DNA of 40,124 nt from a virus (lineage: Duplodnaviria > Caudoviricetes), in the IMG/VR virus record IMGVR_UViG_3300024262_000007, positions 1 through 40,124 of that record. One strand, given 5' to 3'. Made by a program: the position numbers and the translations under genes. Of the stretch, positions 5,600 to 37,760 are shown piece after piece. The stretch's first letter is position 1, and the number at the start of each line of letters is the position of its first letter. The notes below the pieces were generated by a model, which was not told the DNA's origin, searched no databases, and saw nothing but the letters and a program-made list of their open reading frames with translations.

Positions 5600-6730
5600 A
5601 TGAAACTGACTTGTCTACAGGAAAACCTCGATCGGGGCTTGAATATCGTGAGCCGAGCGGTGGCCACCAGGCCGACTCTCCCGATTACCCAGAACATCTT
5701 ACTAACCACGGATAAAGGCCGTCTAAAACTGGCGGCTACTAACCTGGAGATTGCCATCAGCTGCTGGATAGGCGCGAAAGTAGAAGCAGAAGGTGCCATT
5801 ACCCTGCCGGCTAATCTCCTGGGAGACTTTATCCATTCTATGCCGCAAGATACCGTGAGCATTAAACTGTTGCCAGCCGGAAAAATAGTAGAGTTGAAGT
5901 GTACTCGCTTCGAAGGTCGTATTCATGGGGTAGATGCCAAAGACTTCCCGCCAATTCCCGAGGTGGGGGAGGGTCTGAATACTCGAATAGACGTGGAGGC
6001 ATTAAGGCAAGCGATTTCCCGGGTGGTTATAACCGCAGCGACGAAAGACAGCCGTCCTGTGCTCACTGGTGTTTCGGCTAAGTTTAACGGTGATACCTTG
6101 ACCTTGGCCGGGGCTGATGGTTATCGTCTCTCGATTCATAGTGTGCCACTGGCCGAAGCAATTAAGGAAGATGTTGAGGTTATCATCCCGGCGAAAACAC
6201 TCAGAGAGCTCAATAGCTTATTGTCCAATGTGAAGGAGCCGGTTCAGGTGACCATCAACGCGGGGAAAAGCCAGATCCTCTTTCGTTCCAAGGATTTAGA
6301 GGTTGTCTCTCAGTTAATCGTAGGGAGCTTTCCCGATTACATAAAGCTTGTCCCCGAGGGTTTCAAAAGCAAAGTGACTATCGGTGTTGATGAGTTCCGG
6401 CGAGCGGTAAAAGCAGCTTGGGTATTTGCCAGCGAAGGCAAAGGTATTATCCGGATGGTTATCACCCCCGGCGAGGATATCCTTCCTGGAAAGGTTATGG
6501 TGTCGTCAAGTAGTGAGCAGGTTGGGGGGGATGATGGTGAGGTCGACGCAGTGGTTGAAGGAGGCGGCAGGATTGCCTTTGATGGTAAGTTCTTGAATCA
6601 GTTGCTCGGTGTCATCGATGATTCCCAGTTAGTCATGGAGATAAAGGGGGAAAGTTCCCCAGGTCTATTTCTACTTCCCGCCGATGATGCCTATAAGCAC
6701 GTGATCATGCCGACGTTTATTCAGTGGTAG
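5600..6730 (+). CDS. dnaN: DNA polymerase III beta sliding clamp
   Basis: ATNLEIAI, DFPPIP, SRPVLTGV, ADGYRLS, FPDY, IAFDGKFL, HVIMP motifs; 376 aa. Confidence 0.95.
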   Translation: MKLTCLQENLDRGLNIVSRAVATRPTLPITQNILLTTDKGRLKLAATNLEIAISCWIGAKVEAEGAITLPANLLGDFIHSMPQDTVSIKLLPAGKIVELKCTRFEGRIHGVDAKDFPPIPEVGEGLNTRIDVEALRQAISRVVITAATKDSRPVLTGVSAKFNGDTLTLAGADGYRLSIHSVPLAEAIKEDVEVIIPAKTLRELNSLLSNVKEPVQVTINAGKSQILFRSKDLEVVSQLIVGSFPDYIKLVPEGFKSKVTIGVDEFRRAVKAAWVFASEGKGIIRMVITPGEDILPGKVMVSSSSEQVGGDDGEVDAVVEGGGRIAFDGKFLNQLLGVIDDSQLVMEIKGESSPGLFLLPADDAYKHVIMPTFIQW

Positions 6731-6991: not shown

Positions 6992-7009
6992 ACAGTATTA
7001 GCCTACTGT
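6992..7009. repeat. Palindromic site ACAGTA-TTAGCC-TACTGT
   Basis: 12/12 arms; left boundary of duplicated unit. Confidence 0.9.
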
Positions 7010-7019
7010 GGAGAGTATT

Positions 7020-7637
7020 ATGGTGATGGTAGCCAGAAGAACTATCAAGCATAAATGGACTGAGGATGAAGAAGATATCGTCCGGCAGCAATACAAAGGC
7101 AATCATCAGAGTCAAAAGGACATAGCTGACTACCTGAACTATGCCGGCGCCCAACCTCCTATTTCTCAGTTTGCCGTACAGGGTCGGGTAAACAAGCTGG
7201 GACTTGGGCAGAGGGAAAACCGTCGCTGGAGTGAGAGCGAAATGAACCGGCTCCGGGAGTGGACAGGTCGAATCAGGCCGGAGGAGGTGGCGGTCAGGCT
7301 TAAACGAGGAATAGTCTCTGTAATAGTCAAGCAGAAAAAGATGGGACTCTCGCTGCGGGCTAAGGACGGATGGTACACCAAGAAGGATGTGGCGGAAATG
7401 CTCGGCGTCGAGCATAAGAAAGTTCAGCGTTGGATGGATGACGGTTACCTGAAGGCGGTGCCGTATCGAGTGATGCCGCAAAAGAACGGCGGGGGACAGT
7501 GGTATATCGAGGAGAAGGATTTGAGGTGCTTTCTATTGCATTACCCGCAGGAGTTGGTGGGCAGGAACCTTGACGTCGTCCAGATCTTCGATATCCTCGT
7601 TCCTGCCGGCGTAAATGGGTATCATAGCAAACAGTAG
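7020..7637 (+). CDS. DNA-binding protein, Myb-like repeats plus HTH_17, copy 1
   Basis: WTEDEEDIVR / WSESEMNRLR repeats; YTKKDVAEMLGV..KVQRW; 205 aa. Confidence 0.75.
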   Translation: MVMVARRTIKHKWTEDEEDIVRQQYKGNHQSQKDIADYLNYAGAQPPISQFAVQGRVNKLGLGQRENRRWSESEMNRLREWTGRIRPEEVAVRLKRGIVSVIVKQKKMGLSLRAKDGWYTKKDVAEMLGVEHKKVQRWMDDGYLKAVPYRVMPQKNGGGQWYIEEKDLRCFLLHYPQELVGRNLDVVQIFDILVPAGVNGYHSKQ

Positions 7638-7660: not shown

Positions 7661-8278
7661 ATGGTGATGGCAACAAGAAGGACAACTAAGCATAAGTGGA
7701 CTCAGGAGGAAGAGGATATTGTCCGCCAGCGGTACCGGGGCACTCATCAGAGTCAGAGGGACATTGCTGACTACCTGAACCACGCCGGCGCCCAGCCTCC
7801 TATATCGCAATTCGCTGTAAGTGGCCGGATATCGAAGCTTGGTATCGGGCAGCGGGAGAACCGGCGTTGGTCAGAGAGCGAGATGAACCGACTGCGGGAG
7901 TGGACCGGACGGTACCCGTCGGCAATGATAGCACAGAAGCTCAAGAGGGGAATAGTTTCAGTAATCGTCAAGATGGAAAAGATGGGGCTCTCCCGGAGAG
8001 CCAAGACGGGCTGGTATACCAAGAAGGATGTGGCGGAGATGCTGGGGGTAGACCATAAGAAGGTCCAGCGGTGGATGGACGATGGATATTTGAAAGCGGT
8101 GCCGTACCAGGAGATGCCGCAAAAGAATGGCGGGGGGCAGTGGTATATAAAGGAAGAGGATGTGAGAGCCTTTCTTCTGAGGTACCCACAGGAACTGGTA
8201 GGCCGCAACCTCGATGTCTGCCAGGTCTTCGATATTCTCGTCCCCGCCGGCGTAAATGGGTATCATAGCAAACAGTAG
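7661..8278 (+). CDS. DNA-binding protein, Myb-like repeats plus HTH_17, copy 2
   Basis: 205 aa, about 36 differences from copy 1 by hand count. Confidence 0.75.
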   Translation: MVMATRRTTKHKWTQEEEDIVRQRYRGTHQSQRDIADYLNHAGAQPPISQFAVSGRISKLGIGQRENRRWSESEMNRLREWTGRYPSAMIAQKLKRGIVSVIVKMEKMGLSRRAKTGWYTKKDVAEMLGVDHKKVQRWMDDGYLKAVPYQEMPQKNGGGQWYIKEEDVRAFLLRYPQELVGRNLDVCQVFDILVPAGVNGYHSKQ

Positions 8279-18241: not shown

Positions 18242-19492
18242 TTATACGGCTACTGGTTGCCTTGCCGTGCGCTTCCGCTTCGACTTGCCGTTGCTTCCCG
18301 CTTCGGTTGCCTCTATAGGCTCGGCTTCCGTTTCGGCTGCTTCGGCTGCTTCCGCTTCCGCTTCTGGCTCGGCTTCCGGCTCTGGCTCGGTTGCTTCCGC
18401 TTCCGGCTCGGCTTCGGTGTTCGGCTTGTCGCTGGTCATCATCGGCATGGTTACAAGCTGGTAACCGTCAACCGTAAACAGGACTGGCGACTTGCTATCG
18501 GTGAGCTTGAGGTCAACCATACCGCTACAGGCTCTCAAGGCGTCTGCCAGATACTTACCGTCAATCCTCACCCTGTTTGACTCACCATCAATGTCGGCTG
18601 GTATAACCGCTTGCCCTTTATCATCGGGGCTAGACAGTATCACCATGCCGTCACTCGTGATGAGGTCTATCGGGTATGAGTTGCTATCGGCTAGCACCTT
18701 AAGCGAACTTACCGCTTTGACTGCCTCAACGGTGTCAAAGTGTATAGCGGTTTTTACCTCGGTAGGAATTAGCTTCTCATAATCGGGGAAAATGCCATCG
18801 GCACTAACAAAGCTATACCGAATTGCTTCGGTATCAATGAGAAGTTTTACTCCGTCAAGGCTCTCACCGCTTGCCTCAAAGCTCAGGTTGACACGGCGTG
18901 CTTTCCGCAAGGCGTTGGCTATCCCCCACAGGTCATCACGCATAATCAGGGCTTGCCCTTCACCGTCAAAGTCTATAGTCTGGACTGCCAGCCGGAAGCC
19001 GTCAGCACTAATGATGTTTAGCTTTCCTTCACCGGCTTTGAAGAGGATACATTGTAGAACTGGTCGGTTATCCTCTTTAGCGGTAAAGGGTAGCGTTCTG
19101 TCTAGTGCCTCGGCAAGCTCAACATTCCCGATGTTTGGCTTGACGGTATTGTTAGGACTAACTCTAACCTCGGCGTGGGACATAGGGGTATTTTCACCAA
19201 TCCAAGCCATGTCCTCAAGGTAACTGGTATTGCTACCGCAAATTACTTTCAGGCGTTTTCCGATGCCATGCGTCTCGCTATCTGCACCGTTCGCCGGAAC
19301 TATCTTGACTACGTTGCTTCCGGCGATTGCCTTTAAGTAACCGAGTAAGCCTTTACGCCCAACAGTGAAGTCCAGCAGCATGAGCCTATCGGCTAATACT
19401 CTGGATAAGGCGTTTACCAGTGTAGCTCTATGAGCTACAAAGCCGTTACCTGAACGCTTGCCCACAATATTCAGTTTTTCCAGTTTATTCAC
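18242..19492 (-). CDS. Second, divergent beta-clamp-like protein with acidic repeat tail
   Basis: DNRPVLQCI, SADGFRLA, FPDYEKLIP, IDGKYL, VTMPM; unrecognisable N-terminus; (EAEP)n tail. Confidence 0.85.
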   Translation of the reverse strand: MNKLEKLNIVGKRSGNGFVAHRATLVNALSRVLADRLMLLDFTVGRKGLLGYLKAIAGSNVVKIVPANGADSETHGIGKRLKVICGSNTSYLEDMAWIGENTPMSHAEVRVSPNNTVKPNIGNVELAEALDRTLPFTAKEDNRPVLQCILFKAGEGKLNIISADGFRLAVQTIDFDGEGQALIMRDDLWGIANALRKARRVNLSFEASGESLDGVKLLIDTEAIRYSFVSADGIFPDYEKLIPTEVKTAIHFDTVEAVKAVSSLKVLADSNSYPIDLITSDGMVILSSPDDKGQAVIPADIDGESNRVRIDGKYLADALRACSGMVDLKLTDSKSPVLFTVDGYQLVTMPMMTSDKPNTEAEPEAEATEPEPEAEPEAEAEAAEAAETEAEPIEATEAGSNGKSKRKRTARQPVAV

Positions 19493-22793: not shown

Positions 22794-23378
22794 ATGGATT
22801 GCGAAGCGATTTCAGTCGTAGCAGGGGCTGGTCAGCTCCATCTGTATAGCGAGCTTTTAGCAAATGTGCGCTATGACGGCAAGTACCACTCCGTTAAGGA
22901 GCTGGTGCAGCCGGATGACCCGACAGTGAGAGATATCGCCCGGGTGCTGGTGCAGGCGAAAGACTTCACCAAGGCAGCCCAGGAGTTCGTTGATTCCTTC
23001 ACCACGTACCAGAACGAGGTCGGGGACTACTGGACAACTCCCGCGGAGCTGCTGGCGGCCCAGGCCGGCGATTGTGATGATAAGGCTATCCTCCTTTGCT
23101 CAATCCTGAGAAACTACCTGCCCCCGGACCAGGTCTACTGCGCTTTCGGTCTCTGGGTACTTGATGGGGAAACAACCGGGCATATGTATGTTGTAACCGA
23201 GGGGGAAGACGGCGACGATCGTATCATTGAAGCCACGGCCGGTCCGGAGAGAAAGACCAGGGGGAAATACGTACTTCATGGCATGTTTAATGATAAGTAT
23301 GCCTTTTCAACCGAGATAGGGATACGAGAGTTCGACTTGAAGACTGTTGAAGTTGAAGAATTGACGGTAAGGAGGTAA
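22794..23378 (+). CDS. Transglutaminase-like cysteine protease
   Basis: DYWTTPAE..GDCDDKAILLCSIL, GHMYV, IIEAT (Cys-His-acid triad). Confidence 0.8.
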   Translation: MDCEAISVVAGAGQLHLYSELLANVRYDGKYHSVKELVQPDDPTVRDIARVLVQAKDFTKAAQEFVDSFTTYQNEVGDYWTTPAELLAAQAGDCDDKAILLCSILRNYLPPDQVYCAFGLWVLDGETTGHMYVVTEGEDGDDRIIEATAGPERKTRGKYVLHGMFNDKYAFSTEIGIREFDLKTVEVEELTVRR

Positions 23379-23381
23379 GCG

Positions 23382-23774
23382 ATGGCACCCAAGTCAAGAG
23401 CCAGGCAGGTTAAGCGAGTATTGCGAAATGCCGATGACATCATCCATTTATTCACAGGGAAGCGGTTGAAGAACATCGTGGGAACGGGGATAAATATCTT
23501 TGGGGAAGAGCTGGCCAGAAAAGCGGCCGGCGTATTCACCGGACCGGAAGAGCCGGAGCTGCCGCTCAACAGCCCCTACACCATACTGGGAATACATCCT
23601 GAGGCTATGGATGTGGTGGTGAAAGGAGCCTATCGCGCCCTCGCTCGCGAATACCATCCGGACACTGGTACCAAGCCGGACACTGTCAAGTTCCAGGCGG
23701 CCACGGAAGCCTATAATGCCATACTCGCCGAGCGCCAGCTACGCAAGGATCAGGAATGTGCGGCCAAGAGCTAA
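23382..23774 (+). CDS. J-domain (DnaJ-like) protein
   Basis: PYTILG..KGAYRALAREYHPD..FQ...EAY. Confidence 0.88.
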   Translation: MAPKSRARQVKRVLRNADDIIHLFTGKRLKNIVGTGINIFGEELARKAAGVFTGPEEPELPLNSPYTILGIHPEAMDVVVKGAYRALAREYHPDTGTKPDTVKFQAATEAYNAILAERQLRKDQECAAKS

Positions 23775-27724: not shown

Positions 27725-27754
27725 TTGACAATTGCTCTGAAAACGTTACATAAT
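27725..27754 (+). promoter_or_regulatory. Sigma70 promoter
   Basis: TTGACA-18-CATAAT. Confidence 0.65.
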
Positions 27755-27762
27755 TACAGCAA

Positions 27763-27855
27763 ATGGAAGAGCAGGGTTATGTACGGCCGGAGCAGTTTCT
27801 ATTCAGTGTAGTAACTAGCGTTCTGCTAGGTATGATTATGAATGCTGCCACCTAG
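27763..27855 (+). CDS. 30-aa hydrophobic peptide
   Basis: MEEQGYVRPEQFLFSVVTSVLLGMIMNAAT; ATG 8 bp after the -10. Confidence 0.45.
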   Translation: MEEQGYVRPEQFLFSVVTSVLLGMIMNAAT

Positions 27856-27882: not shown

Positions 27883-28764
27883 ATGTTTGGTATTCCCAAA
27901 ACCGACGTAGAGCGCCTTATGTCTCATTATGGCATCAGTGAGGAAGAGGCTGTTGAGTTGCTTTCGAGCTATCCCGCTGACCTATTGCTTTCGGAGAGGG
28001 GATCGGGCTTAGCTCCGGTGGAGATCGTTGGTCGCACTCAAGGCGAGCTCGCCTCAGGACTCGAAATGATGGAGTCCAGTATAAACTATGGGGACAAGGC
28101 CCGGGTGACATTCTGCACCGAGGTTTTACCGGATGAGGTACAGCTTGCTGAAATGTACTTGGGGATGTTATCTACCGGCCACCATGTATCGTACCCCACC
28201 ACTGCCGTGGTTGGTGGGATCCCGACCACCGAGTTCGTTATTAAGAAAGGGTCTCCCTTCTGGCCGTTGATTATCCCAATCTTAGTACCCCTGTTCACTG
28301 TTGGTTTAGTCGCCTTCGGCATCACCAAGATAGAAACCATCACCAAGGCGCTGGTGCCGATCATCTTGATTTCAATCGGCGGCCTGATTGTGCTGGCTGC
28401 GGTGCTTTCCAAGCCAGCCACCAAGTACATCGAGCGGGGCGGGAAGATTCCTTACCTGCCGGCAACCAAGGAAAAGATGACCAGGGATAAAGTGAAGGTC
28501 ATCTCTTGGGCAGAGAGGGATCGGATGCACATCGGCATCGTCGATAAAAAGACGGAGCAGAAGAGTATCGCTGACTGGTGGGATGATGAGGCACGGCAGA
28601 TGTTTGAAGATGGTTTCTTTAAACCAGGCGACATCCGGCAACAGACGATAAAAGGGAGAGCCTTTGAGGATAGCGTTCTGGACTATGCCGAGAGCGTCGG
28701 CATTCTGGCCAGTGGCAAGCGCCTAGCTTTGACTACATCAAAAAAAGCACTGGCCGTCAGGTAG
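27883..28764 (+). CDS. Two-TM membrane protein; N-terminal part of frameshift fusion
   Basis: Two long hydrophobic helices; ends over A7 slippery site. Confidence 0.75.
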   Translation: MFGIPKTDVERLMSHYGISEEEAVELLSSYPADLLLSERGSGLAPVEIVGRTQGELASGLEMMESSINYGDKARVTFCTEVLPDEVQLAEMYLGMLSTGHHVSYPTTAVVGGIPTTEFVIKKGSPFWPLIIPILVPLFTVGLVAFGITKIETITKALVPIILISIGGLIVLAAVLSKPATKYIERGGKIPYLPATKEKMTRDKVKVISWAERDRMHIGIVDKKTEQKSIADWWDDEARQMFEDGFFKPGDIRQQTIKGRAFEDSVLDYAESVGILASGKRLALTTSKKALAVR

Positions 28765-28788
28765 AGAAAGAGAACTATCTGGCGGCTA
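28740..28788 (+). other. Putative -1 programmed frameshift signal
   Basis: A_AAA_AAA in frame, then 14-bp hairpin 28751-28764/28775-28788 with three G-U pairs. Confidence 0.7.
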
Positions 28789-31235
28789 ATGATATTCAGG
28801 AAAGCCGCATCCGCCATGACCTCGGCAAGAGCGTCAACGAAGAGCAAGAGGCAGCCGACAAGTACCGCGATCGGAGCGAATACGCCTCCGGCGCTGGGGA
28901 CAAAGAGACATCTCAACTTTACGAGCACATTGCGGGGGAAGAGGATACCCACAAGAGGGAGTTCCAGGAGCGTGGGCAGAAGCTATCTAAACAGTATTCT
29001 ACTACTGAGCATGTCCCCCAGACCAAGAAGGAGTACTGGGTCAAGATAACCAAACGCGGCGCCAGCTCCTTCAGCGAAGGCTCTCTTATCAGGTGGGAAG
29101 AGTTCAAGGCAGATGACAGAAAGGTCAGAGAGCGTGGGGAAGAGCCAGCCTCCGTCGAGATTGTCAAAGAGCCACACCCGGGTAATGGGAATGGCGACAA
29201 GGAACTTCCGGCCACCGTCCAGGGCGAGCCGATCCCCGACAAGTATCGCACGCTGATACCCCTAATCGATGAGCCACTGCCGCCCGACAGTGATTACCTG
29301 GTGCCGGCGATTGTCCCCGAGGAAGGGGAGCGGAAGATTGACGCCGTACTCCGGCAGCTGAAGGAAGGCGTTGAGGGTATCCAGAACAGTGAACAGTTCC
29401 GGACATTCCTTACCACGATGGCCAAGTTCCATGAGTACTCGTTGGGCAATCAGATCCTTATCGCATTACAGAAGCCAGAGGCCACCCGGGTAGCCGGTTT
29501 CCAGACCTGGAAGAACCTCGGTCGCTTTGTGAAGAAGGGTGAAGCGGGCATCGCTATTCTGGCGCCTATAATGCCGCGCAAGCAGAAGAAGGAAGATGAG
29601 GAAGATGAAGAGTCGCCGCTGAGTCCGGTTTATTTCAAAGTTGTGCATGTTTTTGATGTCAGCCAGACCGAGGGCCAGCCGCTTCCGGAGTTTGAAGTAC
29701 CGAGTCTTACCGGCGAGGCCAATGAAGAGTTGTTTACAAAGGCGTTGGCACTAGCCAAAGGTCAGGGGCTGGAAGTAAGTTTTGACCCCATGCCGTCGCA
29801 GGATCCGGGGCTGAAGGGTTTTTACTCAGGTAAAAAGATATGGGTGAAGCCCGATGAGCCCAGGGCACAGCAGCTCAAGACATTACTTCATGAGATGGCG
29901 CATTACTATTCTGAGGGAGTCTTCCGAATACCCAGGGCGGATGCGGAAACGATTGCCGAAAGTGCTGCCTTTGCTGTGGGGGCCCACTTCGGCTTTGACA
30001 GCGGCATAAGGTCATTCCCTTACGTCGCCCTCTGGTCGCAGGACCCGAAAGTGCTCAAGGCCAACCTTGGCTCAGTCCGGAAGGTGACCAGTATTATGCT
30101 CGAGGGGCTAGAAGACACGAAAGTAGGGCATTATGAGACAATAATCCCTGCCTTTGATGAAACCTTTGGACTACGGAAGCGTGAATTTGATAATAGGAAC
30201 AAGCCAAGGTCTGAATGGATAAGGCGGGAAGAAAATAAGTTGGTGCCAGCTCTAAAGCCTTTCGAGCCGTACCACTTTGCCGAGTTTGTCCTGAGGTATA
30301 ACCGCTTCAGTGATGCTGAGATACCTATTTATAGTGGGCTTACCGGCAAGGCTCCGCTGCGGATCCCCGACCATATTTGGAGAGAGGTAATTGAGGAGAC
30401 TGAAGGCGAATTTATCAAGCAGGGTGAGCTTAACGTCTTCCAGATTCCTGAAAAGGAAAGGCCGGCTTACATGAGAGCAGCGCCGACTTGGAGAGATATT
30501 GCTTCTACTGTTCCAGAGAGCCACCCAGTAATACCTAAGGGGAGATACCCTGAAGTTGAAAATGGAATTGACCAAAAATTGTCTACATGGGCGAAAGAGC
30601 TATCTGTATCGCTTCCGAATTGGTATTTTGCAGAGAACGTTAATTTCGGCTATGATCCTGAGACAAAAATAATTGTATTACCAAGCGATCTCTCAAATGC
30701 AGTGGAGGGTGAAGATTTTAAATACCTGTGGTTCTGGATAGCACATGAATTTGGCCATCATTATATAAGTGATAAGAAGATGGATTTTAAGGAACTCTTT
30801 GATGAGGAAACCTATGCTTCGGATATTGCTACTCAGCTTACTACTTATCAAAGTGGCTATGCTTGGAAAGCCCTTCACGACTTATTGCCAAGGATATGGA
30901 AACAGGAAGTAGCGAAGGAGGGGAAAATGAGAATTGGTGAGGATGGCAAATTATATCTAAATGTCGAGGGAGAAGACATACAGTTATTACCTTTTAATTT
31001 CAAGGTTGCTAATGACCCCATTTGCTATGCTAAAAACGTGAAGAGTGGTAAGGTTGAAAGGCTAAGTCCAGTTGGCCATCAGAAAATTACCATTCTTCCT
31101 TCCAGTCCTAGAGAAGAGTTGGAATTCGTCGCCGACTCCCCTGAACTGATACCTTTCACCATCGACGATATCGGGTACCGTGACAAGTTAGATAATGCCT
31201 TCGAGATGGCAATCGCTAAAGTCCAAGGGGGCTAG
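28746..31235 (+). CDS. Polyvalent protein: ferritin-like motif, ArdC-like ssDNA-binding domain, two HExxH zincin domains (frame open from 28674)
   Basis: YEHIAGEEDTH; FHEYSLGNQILI..VAGFQTWK.LGR.VKKGE..VFDVSQTEG; HEMAH..AES; HEFGH. Confidence 0.8.
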   Translation, partial: STGRQVEKENYLAANDIQESRIRHDLGKSVNEEQEAADKYRDRSEYASGAGDKETSQLYEHIAGEEDTHKREFQERGQKLSKQYSTTEHVPQTKKEYWVKITKRGASSFSEGSLIRWEEFKADDRKVRERGEEPASVEIVKEPHPGNGNGDKELPATVQGEPIPDKYRTLIPLIDEPLPPDSDYLVPAIVPEEGERKIDAVLRQLKEGVEGIQNSEQFRTFLTTMAKFHEYSLGNQILIALQKPEATRVAGFQTWKNLGRFVKKGEAGIAILAPIMPRKQKKEDEEDEESPLSPVYFKVVHVFDVSQTEGQPLPEFEVPSLTGEANEELFTKALALAKGQGLEVSFDPMPSQDPGLKGFYSGKKIWVKPDEPRAQQLKTLLHEMAHYYSEGVFRIPRADAETIAESAAFAVGAHFGFDSGIRSFPYVALWSQDPKVLKANLGSVRKVTSIMLEGLEDTKVGHYETIIPAFDETFGLRKREFDNRNKPRSEWIRREENKLVPALKPFEPYHFAEFVLRYNRFSDAEIPIYSGLTGKAPLRIPDHIWREVIEETEGEFIKQGELNVFQIPEKERPAYMRAAPTWRDIASTVPESHPVIPKGRYPEVENGIDQKLSTWAKELSVSLPNWYFAENVNFGYDPETKIIVLPSDLSNAVEGEDFKYLWFWIAHEFGHHYISDKKMDFKELFDEETYASDIATQLTTYQSGYAWKALHDLLPRIWKQEVAKEGKMRIGEDGKLYLNVEGEDIQLLPFNFKVANDPICYAKNVKSGKVERLSPVGHQKITILPSSPREELEFVADSPELIPFTIDDIGYRDKLDNAFEMAIAKVQGG
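28991..29008. repeat. Palindromic site ACAGTA-TTCTAC-TACTGA (intragenic)
   Basis: 11/12 arms. Confidence 0.6.
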
Positions 31236-32117
31236 ATGTCTTATATAGAGGATGAGGGGAAAGTCATTGGCGATGCGCTCGGTGTAAGATATGACGGCCC
31301 TCAATATTATAAGGAAGACTTCAAGTTCCATCTTTTCACTGACCCCCTCACAGGCTTCACATTTGCTGGTACGTCTTTGGAGGATAGCAAAAAGCGGCTT
31401 GGGAAGATGAGAAGGCAATTCGGCATTTCTCAAGAAAAGTCACCCTCCACACATCCCTTAGTGCTCGAGCGTTTCCCCTATCCGGCTCCGGAGCAGATGG
31501 GGTTGGATATTGGGGGTATCGGCGAGCTAAAGGTAGAGATTCCACCTCCCCGAGGGAGCAAGCTTGAAGAAGGATCGGTTATACGCACTAGCGAAAAGCA
31601 CGATAAAGCCGTTGAACACCTCGGCTACCACTCCGTCAGTTTGAGCGATGATGAGATATCCTTACTCGAAACGAAAGTCCCCACGGATATAGATGTAATC
31701 AACGAATCTCAAAACCGGCTTAGGGAGACGAAGATTATCCCGGATGATCAGCTTAGTTCCGCGCAGCTCGGGCACTTGAACCTTGCCAGGGCAATCGCAA
31801 AGGGTGTCGGCTGTATTCCCCCGGCCGGGATATATGCCGCTGTCATCCCGCCGGCCAGTGACAGGGTAAGGACCGCCGGGCTTTATGGAACCAAGAGTGG
31901 TGCACTATACCTATCTATAGATATGCTTTCGAAAGGTCGAGACGCATTTGATACACTTGTTCACGAACTGGGGCATCATCGCCAGTTCACCAGCAGCGGC
32001 GAGGCGGAGGATTTAACCCCCAGCCACGCAGAGGCCATGACAGATATTGCTAAGAAGTTAATCCAGGGCTTGAACTCGGGCGATTACGATAAACTACTCG
32101 TAGATACACAGTATTGA
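31236..32117 (+). CDS. Zincin-motif protein
   Basis: AGLY...TLVHELGHH. Confidence 0.7.
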   Translation: MSYIEDEGKVIGDALGVRYDGPQYYKEDFKFHLFTDPLTGFTFAGTSLEDSKKRLGKMRRQFGISQEKSPSTHPLVLERFPYPAPEQMGLDIGGIGELKVEIPPPRGSKLEEGSVIRTSEKHDKAVEHLGYHSVSLSDDEISLLETKVPTDIDVINESQNRLRETKIIPDDQLSSAQLGHLNLARAIAKGVGCIPPAGIYAAVIPPASDRVRTAGLYGTKSGALYLSIDMLSKGRDAFDTLVHELGHHRQFTSSGEAEDLTPSHAEAMTDIAKKLIQGLNSGDYDKLLVDTQY

Positions 32118-33443: not shown

Positions 33444-33516
33444 AAGAGGGGGCGAGCACTCTCGGCTGAAAAGTCTGAGGGCTCGCCCCCTCTTCTTTTT
33501 AGCGGAGTGCTCGCCC
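33444..33516 (+). promoter_or_regulatory. Terminator hairpin with alternative pairing partner (attenuator-like leader)
   Basis: 14-bp stem 33444-57/33481-94 plus T-run; 33505-16 complementary to 33450-61. Confidence 0.7.
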
Positions 33517-33560
33517 AACCGCAGAAGTCGAATGCGGAATTCTCGCAAGAGGAGGGAAAC

Positions 33561-33992
33561 ATGATCAGGATTCAGGACTTTGGGGAAGTTGCCTATGGCG
33601 GTGCCGTGACTCTCAGCACATGGTGGGACAACCAGCGCATCGAAAAGGGCACAATCGGCACGAAGGACGTCTTCAAGAAGGCGTCATTCTACACCTATCT
33701 GGGTGTAGGCCTCGTCGCCACGCTCATGAGCGTATTCGGCTGGATGCGGCGCTATGAAGTCTGGACGGAGAAGATCTCCACCGGCTTCCTGTACGACCTG
33801 CCGAGATTCGCCTATGACATGAGCAAGACCCTGAGTTCCGCAGGCAGGGCCAGGACATCCGAATCGGCTGCCGTCAGGGAAGCCCAGAGGATACTCCAGC
33901 AACGGTCCACTGCGCGGCAGCTCACCGAAGGGCAAGCGCATGCCACTCAGCGGAGCTACCAGCCCGAGTTCAACAAAACTATGGCCTGGTAA
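33561..33992 (+). CDS. Membrane protein (putative virion membrane)
   Basis: GAGGAGG SD; hydrophobic FYTYLGVGLVATLMSVFGW. Confidence 0.65.
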   Translation: MIRIQDFGEVAYGGAVTLSTWWDNQRIEKGTIGTKDVFKKASFYTYLGVGLVATLMSVFGWMRRYEVWTEKISTGFLYDLPRFAYDMSKTLSSAGRARTSESAAVREAQRILQQRSTARQLTEGQAHATQRSYQPEFNKTMAW

Positions 33993-34046
33993 AACAGTAA
34001 AAGAAGCGTTCCAAATAAAATATAGCTCAGAAGGAGGTATACACTA

Positions 34047-34682
34047 ATGAGCAGCAGAACGTACATTATACCCGTAGGGTCCATGACCCTCACCGATCAG
34101 AAAGACTATCGGATCAATGCCATCGCCGCCGCCATCGAGCGGGCATCCCAGAAGAAAATCGGCTCTATTTCCGATGAGATTCCGGGATATTCGCAGTTGG
34201 CCAGCAGAAATCAGCGCATTGACCAGGTCACCAGCTGGCTGAAGCAGGGCAACACCCCCGCTTCAATCGATGTCCGCGAACCCCAGCCCGGTCTAGACTT
34301 CGCCTGCACCATCGATGACTGGCAGACCCCGGCCATGGCCGCGGTCAACACCTTCTACACCATCTTCAATGGTGTGGTTACCCCAACGCTTAATGCTGTG
34401 CGCATTGCCGTATGGTATGGCGTTGCGGTCGAGACTGCCGGATTCCCGGTGTCGCGGCTTACCTGGCGCAGCGGAGGCGCCGCCGGCAACATCATCGCCG
34501 AGTTCGACTTGGAGCAGCTCATCAACCGGCTGGAATCCATCGGGTTCTTCTCCGAGCCGGTCATATTCGACCCGACCCTGCCGTACTCCGGGACCGTGAG
34601 ATGTCGCACTGCCACCGCCCTTCTCGCTCGAGTGCAGCCGATGGGATTCATCATTGAGCCCGCCGGTACGACCAACGCATAA
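34047..34682 (+). CDS. Putative major capsid protein candidate (helical N-terminus plus beta-barrel)
   Basis: Strong SD, C/G-ending codon bias, multiple predicted strands; fold inferred only. Confidence 0.4.
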   Translation: MSSRTYIIPVGSMTLTDQKDYRINAIAAAIERASQKKIGSISDEIPGYSQLASRNQRIDQVTSWLKQGNTPASIDVREPQPGLDFACTIDDWQTPAMAAVNTFYTIFNGVVTPTLNAVRIAVWYGVAVETAGFPVSRLTWRSGGAAGNIIAEFDLEQLINRLESIGFFSEPVIFDPTLPYSGTVRCRTATALLARVQPMGFIIEPAGTTNA

Positions 34683-34748
34683 AATAACTGGCATGGTGAG
34701 CCAAGGAACAGAATCACCAATACTCATTATGGAGGATGGAGGTATAAA

Positions 34749-35216
34749 ATGAGTTTCAACGATAAAGTAGATCAAATGTTTCTGGCTGCGATTGAGTCGG
34801 GTAGTATTCGTTATCAGACATTGCCCGCCGCAATAGTTCCCATTGCCGACGATGCCGCTTGGGACGAGTTATTCGCAGCCGCTGGAGCGCCGGCGGTTCC
34901 CTTCTGGTTATGCGGCATCTCTTTCAACTGGGCTACTGGTATCGCCGCGGAAACCTCACTGTTGGTTGATGTCGGTTACGGTGGTGTTGATGGTGCGGCA
35001 ATTGCCGCGGCCACGGTCGTCCTCACCAACTGGCCGGTTACCCTGACGGCGGGAGCAGCTGCCTTGGGTCCCGATACTCACGCGCCACACATGCTGCCGT
35101 TCCCCGTTAAGATACCGGCTGCCAGTCGTATGGCGGCTCGTATCGCCAGTTCACCTACCGGCACCCTGGCCTTCACGGATTTCCGTGTAATTCTGGCCAC
35201 TCTTGTCGGTTCCTAA
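34749..35216 (+). CDS. Beta-rich putative structural protein
   Basis: 155 aa; PFPVKIPAASRMAARI jelly-roll-like ending. Confidence 0.45.
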   Translation: MSFNDKVDQMFLAAIESGSIRYQTLPAAIVPIADDAAWDELFAAAGAPAVPFWLCGISFNWATGIAAETSLLVDVGYGGVDGAAIAAATVVLTNWPVTLTAGAAALGPDTHAPHMLPFPVKIPAASRMAARIASSPTGTLAFTDFRVILATLVGS

Positions 35217-35339
35217 TTCTTAACCTGACCAAATGAGGGGGGAGGGATAGAGCCCTCCCCCCCACCCTAAAATTGAATATTACACGCTGGGCTTAAAAAG
35301 CCATGGCGTCTCTAGAAAAATCGATGTAAGGAGGCTGCT

Positions 35340-35993
35340 ATGGAAGTAGCAAATATCTATGACAATGGTCCCCTGTCCTTAGTCGCAAGGATTAAGGATA
35401 CCATCTCCGTCTACACGGCCAAGAAGTGGGCTCACTACCAGGTCGCCTATGCCGAGCCATGGCCCAGGTCCAGCCCTCTGAGGGTTGATCTGGTTGCTCT
35501 CGCCGGCGCAACGGCGATTGCCGCCAATGGCAACATCACCAAGCGGCTCATTCCCATTCTACAGGTCACCGATGGAGAAATGCTCTGTGTCCGGTTTGAA
35601 CCCCTGGACGATGTCGAAGGGGTGATCTGGGAGCAGTCCGGCACCGGCAGGTTCAACTCGCGTAACAATCATGCCCGGGTAGACATGGCCAGTGGTCTGC
35701 GCGATCCATACCTGGCGGGTACTACCTTTTTCATTATGGGTCACCAGCGGGAGATGAACCTGGAAGTGCAGAACCCCAACCCAATAGCCCTTCCCCAAGC
35801 CAGATTTCAGTTCTTCGGTTTCCGCTATGTGGTTGAAGAGATATCTCCCGACCTGAGTTCGGTTGTCACTCAGAATGGGCAGCCTGACAAGCAGAAACAG
35901 GAAGATATCATCAGGCAGCTGGCGGCCGGGGACAAATCCACCGTAGCGCAATTCATCGGTCCGACGACCTGGTTGCCGGCCGAGGGCAGATAA
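35340..35993 (+). CDS. Putative structural protein
   Basis: 217 aa, beta-rich, AAGGAGG SD. Confidence 0.45.
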   Translation: MEVANIYDNGPLSLVARIKDTISVYTAKKWAHYQVAYAEPWPRSSPLRVDLVALAGATAIAANGNITKRLIPILQVTDGEMLCVRFEPLDDVEGVIWEQSGTGRFNSRNNHARVDMASGLRDPYLAGTTFFIMGHQREMNLEVQNPNPIALPQARFQFFGFRYVVEEISPDLSSVVTQNGQPDKQKQEDIIRQLAAGDKSTVAQFIGPTTWLPAEGR

Positions 35994-36007
35994 AGGAGGT
36001 TATGTAG

Positions 36008-36451
36008 ATGAGTTATCTAATTACTCAAGGCAGATACACCGGCATGATTGCCAAAGCCAATAACCGGAGTGGCGCAGCCGGCGCGGCTATCGGGCCAGGA
36101 ATAGTTACCTCGAGCGCAGTGGGAGCAGACCTGATACATCAAATTCCTGTGGGGCGCTCCTTCTATGTCACCAAGCTCATGTGGTATCACGCTCTTGCCG
36201 GCACTGTTCTCCTGACATTTGGCACCCTTTCTAATGCCGGAGTACCGGCCATGGTGCAGATGTTCCCCGTGCAGGTGGCATTAGCCAATGTCGTTGGAGG
36301 AAGGATAGAGGAAGAGTTGGCAGGGGTTGAATTCATGCTGAACTCTGTACCCTTAGTCGGCTGGAACGGGAATCTCATTGTCACAGCTACCCTGGCAGGC
36401 GTCATAGTAGCTGGGGTCCAGATCTCCGCAGAATTAGCTGAGAAGTCATAG
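36008..36451 (+). CDS. Beta-rich putative structural protein
   Basis: 147 aa; HQIPVGRSFYVTKLMW. Confidence 0.45.
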   Translation: MSYLITQGRYTGMIAKANNRSGAAGAAIGPGIVTSSAVGADLIHQIPVGRSFYVTKLMWYHALAGTVLLTFGTLSNAGVPAMVQMFPVQVALANVVGGRIEEELAGVEFMLNSVPLVGWNGNLIVTATLAGVIVAGVQISAELAEKS

Positions 36452-36466
36452 TAGAGGGAGAGTTAA

Positions 36467-36568
36467 ATGTCTGTAAAGGTCATTGGGCCTAAAGATGTTA
36501 CAGCTCTAGTCCTGTTGGTAGCCACCATGTCTGCGATTGGTGGCTGACTTCTGGCTAAGAAAAAATAA
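36467..36568 (+). other. Small TM peptide ORF with internal TGA at 36545
   Basis: MSVKVIGPKDVTALVLLVATMSAIGG*LLAKKK*. Confidence 0.45.
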
Positions 36569-36580
36569 AAGGAGTAAGTC

Positions 36581-36733
36581 ATGGCTGATGATGTAGCCCA
36601 GAAAATAGAAGAAGCCAAGAAGAAGATGTTCGGTAATCTCCAGCCTTCGGGAGGGAAAATTGTGATTCTGAGCAAGGGAGATGCGGAGGTTAAGTCATCC
36701 GACCCGAGGGTTGAAGTAAGGAAGGTGACATGA
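36581..36733 (+). CDS. Small hypothetical protein (50 aa)
   Basis: AAGGAG SD; ATGA overlap with next gene. Confidence 0.6.
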   Translation: MADDVAQKIEEAKKKMFGNLQPSGGKIVILSKGDAEVKSSDPRVEVRKVT

Positions 36734-37284
36734 ATTTCCCGGATATAGTTAACTATCTCCTTACTCTTAGATACCCGGGTTCTGAGAGCGGCCGGCAGAA
36801 CTGGGTTTGCTATCGCGGCGGCCACCAGACGGTTGTACCTGTGTTTCCACCGAATACTACTGTTAAATATACGGTTCTGCCGTTGCATGGAGTCTACGCT
36901 TGGCTGGCATGGTCGTCCAGGTTCGGTGATGACATGGTACCGAATACGTTTACCGGCAGCATAAACTTTTACGGCACGGAGCCGCTGAGTGCCGTGCTCA
37001 CTTCGCGGGTGAGAAATGACCCGTTCGAGTATTTTACACTGATAACCGAGCAGGAGCCGATGAATATCACTATGAGCAATATCAGTCCGCTGGGTCAGCG
37101 GGCAGAGATACTTAGTGACTTTCTGGTGATCCCCACCCCGAACGATCTGGCAACCATAAGTGATGCCCTGCGCCGGCTGGAAACCTCCATAGAATCGGAG
37201 CATCTCCTGCAGCAGAGTGCTTACCTTCTCGGTGTATTGAGTGGGGAGCCGCAGGAGCCGCGGCCGCCGGTAGGAGGCAGTTAA
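36730..37284 (+). CDS. Putative structural protein
   Basis: 184 aa in operon. Confidence 0.5.
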   Translation: MNFPDIVNYLLTLRYPGSESGRQNWVCYRGGHQTVVPVFPPNTTVKYTVLPLHGVYAWLAWSSRFGDDMVPNTFTGSINFYGTEPLSAVLTSRVRNDPFEYFTLITEQEPMNITMSNISPLGQRAEILSDFLVIPTPNDLATISDALRRLETSIESEHLLQQSAYLLGVLSGEPQEPRPPVGGS

Positions 37285-37760
37285 TGAATGTAATACAAGG
37301 GCCGTGGGTTATTCTTCCGAGAGTGGTTATCCTTGGCACCGAGACAGAGACGGTTGCCGACCTGGTGGAGCATACCTCCATCGAATTTCCGGTGGAGTAC
37401 CTGCAGGAGAAAGAGATCCATATTCTTGCTACTGAGGTAGTCATGTTTGGCGTCCCCGGCAATCTCCAGTGCTGGGTTGAGCTTTCGCCGGTCCCAACGG
37501 CCAATAACCTTATGTGGCCGGCACCGTTGCCAGTTCTGGGGCAATATTGGGCGGCCATTGGTGGCGGAGGGGGCGCTATAGCGCCGACAGCTCCGCTGGT
37601 CGAGGTGGCCACCGGGGTAATGGGCACGACGCACAGTATTCTGATACCGTGGGCAATTCACTCAGCCTGGGCTCGTCTGGTGATACAGACACCAGTTTCA
37701 GCCACGCCGGCCACGGCTTTCTGGATCGTTCAGGCGATATTCAGTGGGGCCAGTAAGTGA
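37284..37760 (+). CDS. Beta-rich putative structural protein
   Basis: 158 aa; VELSP...WARLVIQT. Confidence 0.5.
   Translation: MNVIQGPWVILPRVVILGTETETVADLVEHTSIEFPVEYLQEKEIHILATEVVMFGVPGNLQCWVELSPVPTANNLMWPAPLPVLGQYWAAIGGGGGAIAPTAPLVEVATGVMGTTHSILIPWAIHSAWARLVIQTPVSATPATAFWIVQAIFSGASK

Follow-up and report, generated by a model that had tools for sequence, protein, structure and literature searches.

The window analysed here is the whole of the viral record IMGVR_UViG_3300024262_000007 (40,124 nucleotides, nt), a complete circle of 40 kb with a 127-nt terminal repeat, and our subject is a plus-strand locus at which two overlapping reading frames are very probably joined by a programmed −1 ribosomal frameshift (Table 1). 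The upstream open reading frame (ORF), ORF1 (27883–28764), encodes 293 amino acids (aa) and ends in TCA AAA AAA GCA CTG GCC GTC AGG TAG, in which seven A residues (28740–28746) form the slippery heptamer A_AAA_AAA in the ORF1 register. The −1 frame opens at 28674 and extends to 31235, its earliest ATG, GTG or TTG lies at 29301, and the 829-codon extension that a shift would add has no start codon in its first 187 codons; the predicted shift product is 288 + 829 = 1117 aa long. Behind the heptamer lies a hairpin (28751–28788) of 14 pairs, three of them G-U, with a 10-nt loop and a computed energy of −22.8 kcal/mol, whose invariant G-C core starts 6 nt past the heptamer. Its z is −5.19, none of 200 shuffles is equally stable, and of 1603 50-nt windows sampled across the genome 4 fold as well; among 38 slippery-type heptamer matches listed on both strands, none is followed by a more stable fold. 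An Rfam scan returned one match, at chance level only. A preliminary description, made from the letters alone, had proposed the start-less frame, the A7 run closing an upstream ORF with two transmembrane segments, the hairpin with its G-U pairs and the predicted short and long products, and frame reading and folding bear out all of these.

The arrangement recurs in relatives. Alignment to ORF1 retrieved 82 loci, including the window's own sequence (L004) and one duplicate (L085, of L077), and the eight that end before the ORF1 stop leave 74 that can be scored. An in-register heptamer stands just before the ORF1 stop in 58 of the 74 (50 A_AAA_AAA and 8 C_CCA_AAA). Every one of these 58 has a −1 frame free of stops for at least 70 codons or up to the contig end; the +1 frame of these loci shuts within about 13 codons, 38 at most. 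In 13 of the 16 loci without a heptamer the −1 frame is shut within 60 codons, in the other three it enters a gene with its own start codon near the stop, and the start-less −1 ORF is absent from all 16 (G_GGG_GGA in L081 was not scored as a site; L079 has no heptamer). The proposal that a −1 shift joins both frames is thus supported across the family, since 58 of the 74 loci preserve the heptamer together with its register, its spacing and the stem. At the protein level, 61 of 103 search matches span the ORF1 core (one being the window's own protein), and 59 of these 61 share a closing KKxxA[AV] tail even though the stretch between membrane helices and tail differs. Long single-ORF forms (514–2000 aa) with the ORF1 core numbered zero among 1684 candidates, which is weak evidence, and viral contigs yielded no match in a locus search with a single protein. 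A DNA pattern scan of viral contigs gave three matches (L001–L003), rejected as chance occurrences within unrelated portal genes.

Distinct sites number 49 (42 A_AAA_AAA and 7 C_CCA_AAA). The codon ahead of the site may be any of seven, for six amino acids, and always completes the XXX of the heptamer; elsewhere, AAA AAA encodes just 10 of 130 Lys-Lys pairs. Homopolymer runs are prone to sequencing and assembly error, and one relative (L083) is fused in frame, as might be expected if the true sequence had eight A residues and the locus were a misassembled or decayed single ORF. That explanation can practically be dismissed: the identical break falls at the same base in 58 loci, so that relatives already refute it, and the tail shared by the database homologs speaks against it as well. 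The 111 contigs of four runs that cover 28700–28860 (2, 55, 53 and 1) carry the A run without an indel; the runs are X1, which may be the source of the window and has a contig depth of 216, X2, X3 and X5. The A7-versus-A8 comparison suggested in the preliminary description, made here on contigs, turned up no A8 form.

Transcriptional slippage, by which the polymerase would add one A within the A7 run and ordinary translation would yield the fusion, predicts a nearly identical product; Thermus dnaX and many insertion sequence (IS) elements use it (PMC5009743), and A7 runs are under-represented in Escherichia coli genes, possibly through slippage (PMC4066793). We consider it improbable at this locus, where the run is kept at seven A residues in 41 of 42 distinct A-type sites, always in codon register, and where the seven C_CCA_AAA sites offer just four A residues. 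In −1 signals a 3' structure at a set spacer suits the ribosome, and here the structure follows on the 3' side behind a constant 6-nt spacer. At 48 of the 49 sites the G-C core starts 6 nt past the heptamer, the 49th (L049) being an artefact of the pattern, and two unrelated hairpin types share that spacing, since six loci have a shorter, different hairpin behind C_CCA_AAA (z −3.6 in L060).

At 41 of 41 distinct sites the 3' arm lies 29, 32, 35 or 38 nt from the heptamer, and because these lengths differ by threes the loop would be read in the −1 frame. This bears on a second alternative, that of two separate proteins, the first ending at the TAG within the hairpin and the second restarting at a CTG or TTG of the 3' arm or at another non-canonical start. 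The 3'-arm codon is indeed CTG in 35 and TTG in 5 of the 41 sites, and the loop is purine-rich in the window's clade; however, one site has CTA, the loops of many relatives do not resemble a Shine-Dalgarno (SD) sequence, a codon of this kind is absent from the second hairpin type, the fusion in L083 is real, and a restart leaves the heptamer, its register and the loop changes by threes unexplained. An SD sequence plus start codon near the ORF1 stop occurs in 1 of 57 loci, and in 16 distinct copies of the ferritin-like module the first NTG of the −1 frame lies anywhere from codon 13 to codon 226, or is missing, with no start codon shared. On this evidence a restart, too, is hard to sustain.

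Read on the minus strand, the hairpin is followed by GTGC and seven T residues (z −2.18) and could be an intrinsic terminator, with the −1 ORF expressed in some other way. This is very improbable: the minus-strand fold reaches −13.5 against −22.8 kcal/mol on the plus strand, because the G-U pairs become A-C, and the plus strand is the more stable at 44 of the 49 sites; a terminator scan made no call, there is no convergent gene nearby, and C_CCA_AAA sites leave just four U. The stem also shows constraint beyond the end of ORF1. Its two alanine codons past the ORF1 stop are GCG in 40 and GCT in 39 of 41 sites, against backgrounds of 255/1523 (17%) and 411/1523 (27%) of Ala codons elsewhere, whereas 57 of 60 third positions vary in the ferritin-like module that follows. 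The preliminary description had read RNA-level selection from the G-U pairs; the case for such selection, as far as sequence comparison carries it, instead consists of these fixed synonymous sites, the frame-keeping loop lengths and the stronger plus-strand folding.

The start-less segment itself is, by its substitution pattern, under purifying selection in the −1 frame, that is, a conserved coding module. Among 16 distinct copies of the ferritin-like module, the ratio of nonsynonymous to synonymous variation (pN/pS) is 0.23 in the −1 frame versus 1.57 in the other two, and stops occur in 0 (the −1 frame), 8 and 16 of the 16 sequences in the three frames. In L083, which has 36% identity in the core, leader, anchor, both helices, ferritin-like module and C-terminal tag form a single 421-aa ORF, and from this natural in-frame fusion it follows that these parts can function as one chain. 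Taken together, the comparisons point strongly to a conserved programmed −1 frameshift at this locus, and that the slippage is ribosomal in nature we would hold at least as firmly.

ORF1, which matched no Pfam, PHROG or NCBIfam family, supplies the anchor. Both of its predicted membrane helices are kept in the ORF1 alignment. Contig joints run from 28448–28469 to 28735–28739, and the final third of the short form is an exchangeable module in its own right. A promoter-like site lies 8 nt ahead of an ATG at 27763, a layout repeated in the relatives compared, and mRNA from 27763 is likely leaderless. The hydrophobic leader that begins there is closed by a TAG at 27853 in the window, where contigs of runs X2–X4 have CAG, and other stops interrupt the leader-ORF1 linker in L010, L016 and L058; the ORF1 gene probably begins upstream, at ATG 27763. 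The second start (27883) is preceded by its own GGAGG ribosome-binding site, which, together with the independent linker stops, suggests that there are two working starts.

Table 1. Features of the proposed frameshift locus and of related genes, in window coordinates
Feature	Position	Strand	Remarks
Transglutaminase/LapG-like cysteine peptidase	22794..23378	+	PF24656 E 1.5e-7; NF045674 E 1.4e-5 (below cut-off)
Sigma70-type promoter-like site, TTGACA-N18-CATAAT	27725..27754	+	11/12 consensus matches
Hydrophobic leader ORF, 30 aa	27763..27855	+	in frame with ORF1; TAG here, fused to ORF1 in most relatives
ORF1, 293-aa short form	27883..28764	+	small soluble domain, two predicted membrane helices, LPAT linker, exchangeable module, KKALAVR tail
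Two predicted transmembrane helices	28258..28410	+	about aa 126–147 and 156–176; Kyte-Doolittle peaks 2.55 and 2.87
LPAT linker at the end of the constant anchor	28456..28467	+	module swaps begin here
Slippery heptamer A_AAA_AAA	28740..28746	+	A7 run, in ORF1 register
−1 frame extension	28746..31235	+	829 aa; predicted total 1117 aa
Putative stimulatory hairpin, 14 bp	28751..28788	+	ORF1 stop 28762–28764 within 5' arm
Ferritin-like two-helix module (half bundle)	28785..28982	+	upstream of any canonical start
YSTT, VPQT and LPAT linkers around small module	28995..29216	+	
ArdC N-terminal domain	29331..29654	+	PF08401 E 2.3e-14; phrog_7245
Zincin-like metallopeptidase (HEMAH)	29757..29909	+	PF06114 (Peptidase_M78) E 3.9e-5; phrog_87
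Second HExxH (HEFGH), further optional module	30744..30758	+	from sequence
C-terminal tag (EFxxDSPE...IGYRDKLD...)	31089..31232	+	conserved
Single jelly-roll capsid candidate	34047..34682	+	model pLDDT 96.6 from 71 homologs

The complete −1 products of the relatives are about 70–1111 aa long and are mosaics of exchangeable modules. The first module in the window had been described as a convincing ferritin-like motif, and although it is a conserved coding module the likeness is weak: it resembles the C-terminal half of bacterioferritin, a two-helix half only (Pfam E 0.001, below cut-off; bacterioferritin 4am2 E 0.0045), and scores 16–24 bits against encapsulin-associated ferritin-like TIGR04535, whose cut-off is 125. 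The same ferritin-like half occurs as a stand-alone small ORF in remoter elements of one metagenome-assembled genome (MAG) (L093:6969 and G001:C187:37659), where the stretches retrieved contained no ORF1 homolog. The anti-restriction and metalloprotease domains announced in the preliminary description are present, with ArdcN and Peptidase_M78 above their Pfam cut-offs, but they are optional cargo rather than a constant part: when 28 products were scanned, out of 37 that reach at least 200 aa, ArdcN occurred in 16, and DUF2958, zinc ribbons and many unnamed modules were found too. Modules similar to the HEFGH module occur in L005, L014, L040 and L065. An ESM Atlas search returned unnamed clusters only. 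The C_CCA_AAA-type products of L060 (519–1205) and L074 (5767–6453) are without the tag and close with a domain whose motif looks ParB-like; the L060 tail domain had no Pfam match at E 0.001.

What stays constant is the way the modules are strung together. Alignment breakpoints fall near a short linker motif in 92 of 473 cases, against 35 expected, and because the motif was chosen from sequences already examined a held-out test was made on 42 other protein matches: these contain the strict form [LVI]P[ASQ]T 36 times versus 1.7 in shuffles, and 78 capsid homologs of similar total length contain it four times. The linker codons vary freely, so the constraint acts on the peptide, with the exception of the YSTT linker, whose DNA is nearly fixed (first 11 bases shared in 22 of 23 contexts; 28995–29006 in the window, and relatives) and is possibly a recombination joint or RNA element. 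A sortase substrate has Gly after Thr and then a membrane helix; the linkers do not match LPxTG, as T is followed mostly by K, V, N, I, S or E (104 contexts). A 40-aa tag closes 23 of the 26 complete −1 products of at least 200 aa as well as L083, is always C-terminal, and also closes DUF192-anchored proteins. In these last (P0063–P0102), which are single-ORF proteins, DUF192 and one membrane helix precede the same linker-joined modules and the tag, an apparent second anchor drawing on a shared pool. The constant design is a membrane anchor, linker-joined modules and a terminal tag, and the frameshift is one way of building it.

The proposed frameshift gene lies about 3 kb upstream of the capsid candidate and is syntenic with it in relatives. 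The candidate's model reaches a far higher predicted local distance difference test (pLDDT) score with homologs than from the single sequence (pLDDT 41). Its best solved match is VP4 of Sulfolobus polyhedral virus 1 (SPV1; 6oj0), with Z 9.6 (next 6.7), a root-mean-square deviation of 3.6 and 142 aligned residues; Foldseek (E 7e-4) also puts it first, but the score is modest (TM 0.45–0.51 and 8–10% identity across the two aligners), and VP4 ranks fifth against the model in a viral library. No long ORF of the window has a Walker-A motif, and terminase, portal and polymerase went unmatched among the proteins scanned (31 against Pfam and 29 against PHROGs). On the modelled fold, the element is likely a tailless virus, with the single jelly roll of SPV1 as the best match to its capsid candidate. 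The jelly-roll gene stands within a run of similar-sized ORFs (33507–37760), one of which (33507–33992) looks helical by eye and is a candidate VP1-like nucleoprotein. The transglutaminase/LapG-like peptidase gene is syntenic in most long loci, and a small ORF next to it (23382–23774) appears J-domain-like by eye.

The hosts are likely groundwater Dehalococcoidia, a grade kept because binning could mislead: one relative lies in a Dehalococcoidales MAG and a second in another NCBI record so named, and all five relatives that carry an organism name within a clamp's top 120 are Chloroflexi or Dehalococcoidia. Of 401 genomes of the class, the ORF1 profile matched 2 and the capsid profile 1, with no match in the others. 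The window has two sliding-clamp-like genes on opposite strands (5600–6730 and 18242–19492), one 57–60% identical to Chloroflexota dnaN and the other divergent, with N- and C-terminal additions. Elsewhere in the window, a gene with an HExxH motif (31236–32117) starts right after the stop of the −1 frame, matches relatives in separate pieces and may be modular too, and 7008–7637 and 7661–8278 are tandem near-duplicate helix-turn-helix genes.

As we picture the mechanism, a ribosome would meet the stem and its two lysine tRNAs would re-pair in tandem one base back at A_AAA_AAA; most ribosomes would terminate 15 nt on and leave an abundant short anchor, and a minority would read on in the −1 frame into a rarer long form with its swappable domain string. 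The two ends of the helical hairpin should emerge at the same membrane face, which would expose the cargo either to the cytoplasm or to the inside of the virion, and the overall purpose would be a Gag-Pol-like dosing of membrane-tethered cargo. Analogy with known systems gives roughly an even chance that the anchor belongs to the inner membrane of a tailless, SPV1-like virion and in this way sets the dose of the cargo and gets it packaged; delivery together with the genome, which the preliminary description had called possible, would be a further hypothesis. The odds fall slightly short of even that the ArdC-N/zincin cargo protects incoming DNA in the Dehalococcoidia host, and it is conceivable, if somewhat more doubtful, that the cysteine peptidase encoded by the element, or a zincin module, cleaves the linkers and frees the domains. 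The boldest version, in which membrane-containing single jelly-roll viruses of Dehalococcoidia converged on the retroviral Gag-Pol logic, with a −1 frameshift that attaches an exchangeable cassette of anti-defence and other enzymes at a fixed ratio to an inner-membrane virion protein, a tag that docks it and a viral cysteine protease that cuts LP[AQS]T linkers to release modules for delivery, is speculative and, taken as a whole, unlikely.

Heptamers of both kinds have precedents: A_AAA_AAG and A_AAA_AAA, the two most frequent, make up 72% of IS1/IS3 heptamers, and C_CCA_AAA shifts in E. coli, among the motifs exceeding 0.10% without stimulators (PMC4066793). Several observations weigh against the frameshift or against parts of the scheme built on it. 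In E. coli, A_AAA_AAA shifts less well than A_AAA_AAG (PMC5009743), and only 3 of the 49 sites have an SD-like 4-mer upstream, an optional stimulator in bacteria. The stem was to be checked for covariation, and there, although heptamer and hairpin are kept, support is lacking: two-sided changes affect 2 of 14 pairs (5 cells) and do not exceed column shuffles, in a 41-row alignment with 91% of cells paired, four pairs invariant, six varying on one side and two on both. The counts overstate independent events because the loci are kin; a 66-row tree of the ORF1 core has seven label changes in all, its bootstrap unsettled, and on well-supported branches at least three changes each for "none" and C_CCA_AAA. 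Contigs drop rare variants, and a low-level A8 form could escape the 111-contig comparison. As to the cargo, ArdC-N is missing from 12 of the 28 scanned products, nine of them complete, and the cysteine peptidase occurs also in elements without the frameshift.

The locus combines two known kinds of system, −1 frameshifting and the polyvalent protein, and shares features with several described examples. The orfA-orfB genes of IS1 and IS3 have the same heptamer class, a 3' stem-loop and a short 0-frame product made in a set proportion to a longer −1 fusion (PMC4066793, PMC5009743); unlike them, the present locus has no transposase, a membrane protein upstream, a variable multi-domain string downstream and no conserved upstream SD stimulator. 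PMC5009743 covers frameshifting or slippage in lambda G/GT, capsid extensions, Gag-Pol, CsoS2 and dnaX. In lambda (the tail chaperones gpG/gpGT) and in T7/T3, A2, A118 and PSA (capsid or tail extensions), too, one protein of the morphogenesis region exists in a short and a C-terminally extended form (PMC5009743), but those tailed phages carry one fixed extension (a T domain or an Ig-like domain), whereas the present virus has no tail, its anchor bears membrane helices, and 70–1100 aa of exchangeable modules make up the extension. In retroviral and totiviral Gag-Pol a −1 frameshift fuses enzymes to a structural anchor, sets the ratio and aids packaging before cleavage (PMC5009743); the likeness is one of analogy only, with no relationship in sequence or fold, and in the present case, a DNA virus of bacteria, packaging and cleavage would be hypothetical.

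Polyvalent proteins of phages and conjugative elements, as described by Iyer et al. (2017; PMC5512222), likewise carry unrelated domains in one chain, ArdC-N and a zincin-like metallopeptidase among them, are encoded near virion genes and have been proposed to be processed. The present protein agrees in its several unrelated domains and variable architecture, its ArdC-N and zincin-like domains and its place near virion genes, and differs from those described in depending on a frameshift, in its membrane anchor, in its recurring linkers and in its fixed C-terminal tag. The main text of that paper contains none of the words "frameshift", "transmembrane", "ferritin" and "Chloroflexi", a count over the main text, the supplements of which may list related proteins. 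The Portogloboviridae (SPV1) share circular double-stranded DNA and the lack of any Walker-A packaging ATPase or polymerase found (PMC8459092), and their capsid fold is the best structural match, at a modest score, of the single jelly-roll candidate, but SPV1 has about 20 kb and a host in the Sulfolobales, in contrast to the 40 kb, bacterial signals, likely Dehalococcoidia host and integrase and clamp genes found here; the family's ICTV profile does not mention a frameshift (PMC8459092). IME1 of Dehalococcoides, at 21–28 kb and with a pI ATPase, was considered and set aside as a different group (10.64898/2026.09.15.751708). In literature coverage that reached few subscription papers, we found no account of frameshifted ArdC or polyvalent proteins, of tailless Dehalococcoidia viruses, of frameshifts in tailless-virus or membrane virion proteins, or of this SPV1-like Dehalococcoidia virus group.

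Such an architecture is invisible in databases because gene callers cut the first 100–200 residues and split the proteins from their anchor. The locus would be an unusually well-controlled natural bacterial −1 frameshift outside IS elements and tail genes, with comparative controls in its two heptamers, two hairpin types, loss cases and fused relative. It points to an SPV1-like virus group in the Dehalococcoidia, holds a library of short unknown modules likely acting in virus-host conflict, and may offer a testable answer to how polyvalent proteins get dosed, packaged and processed.

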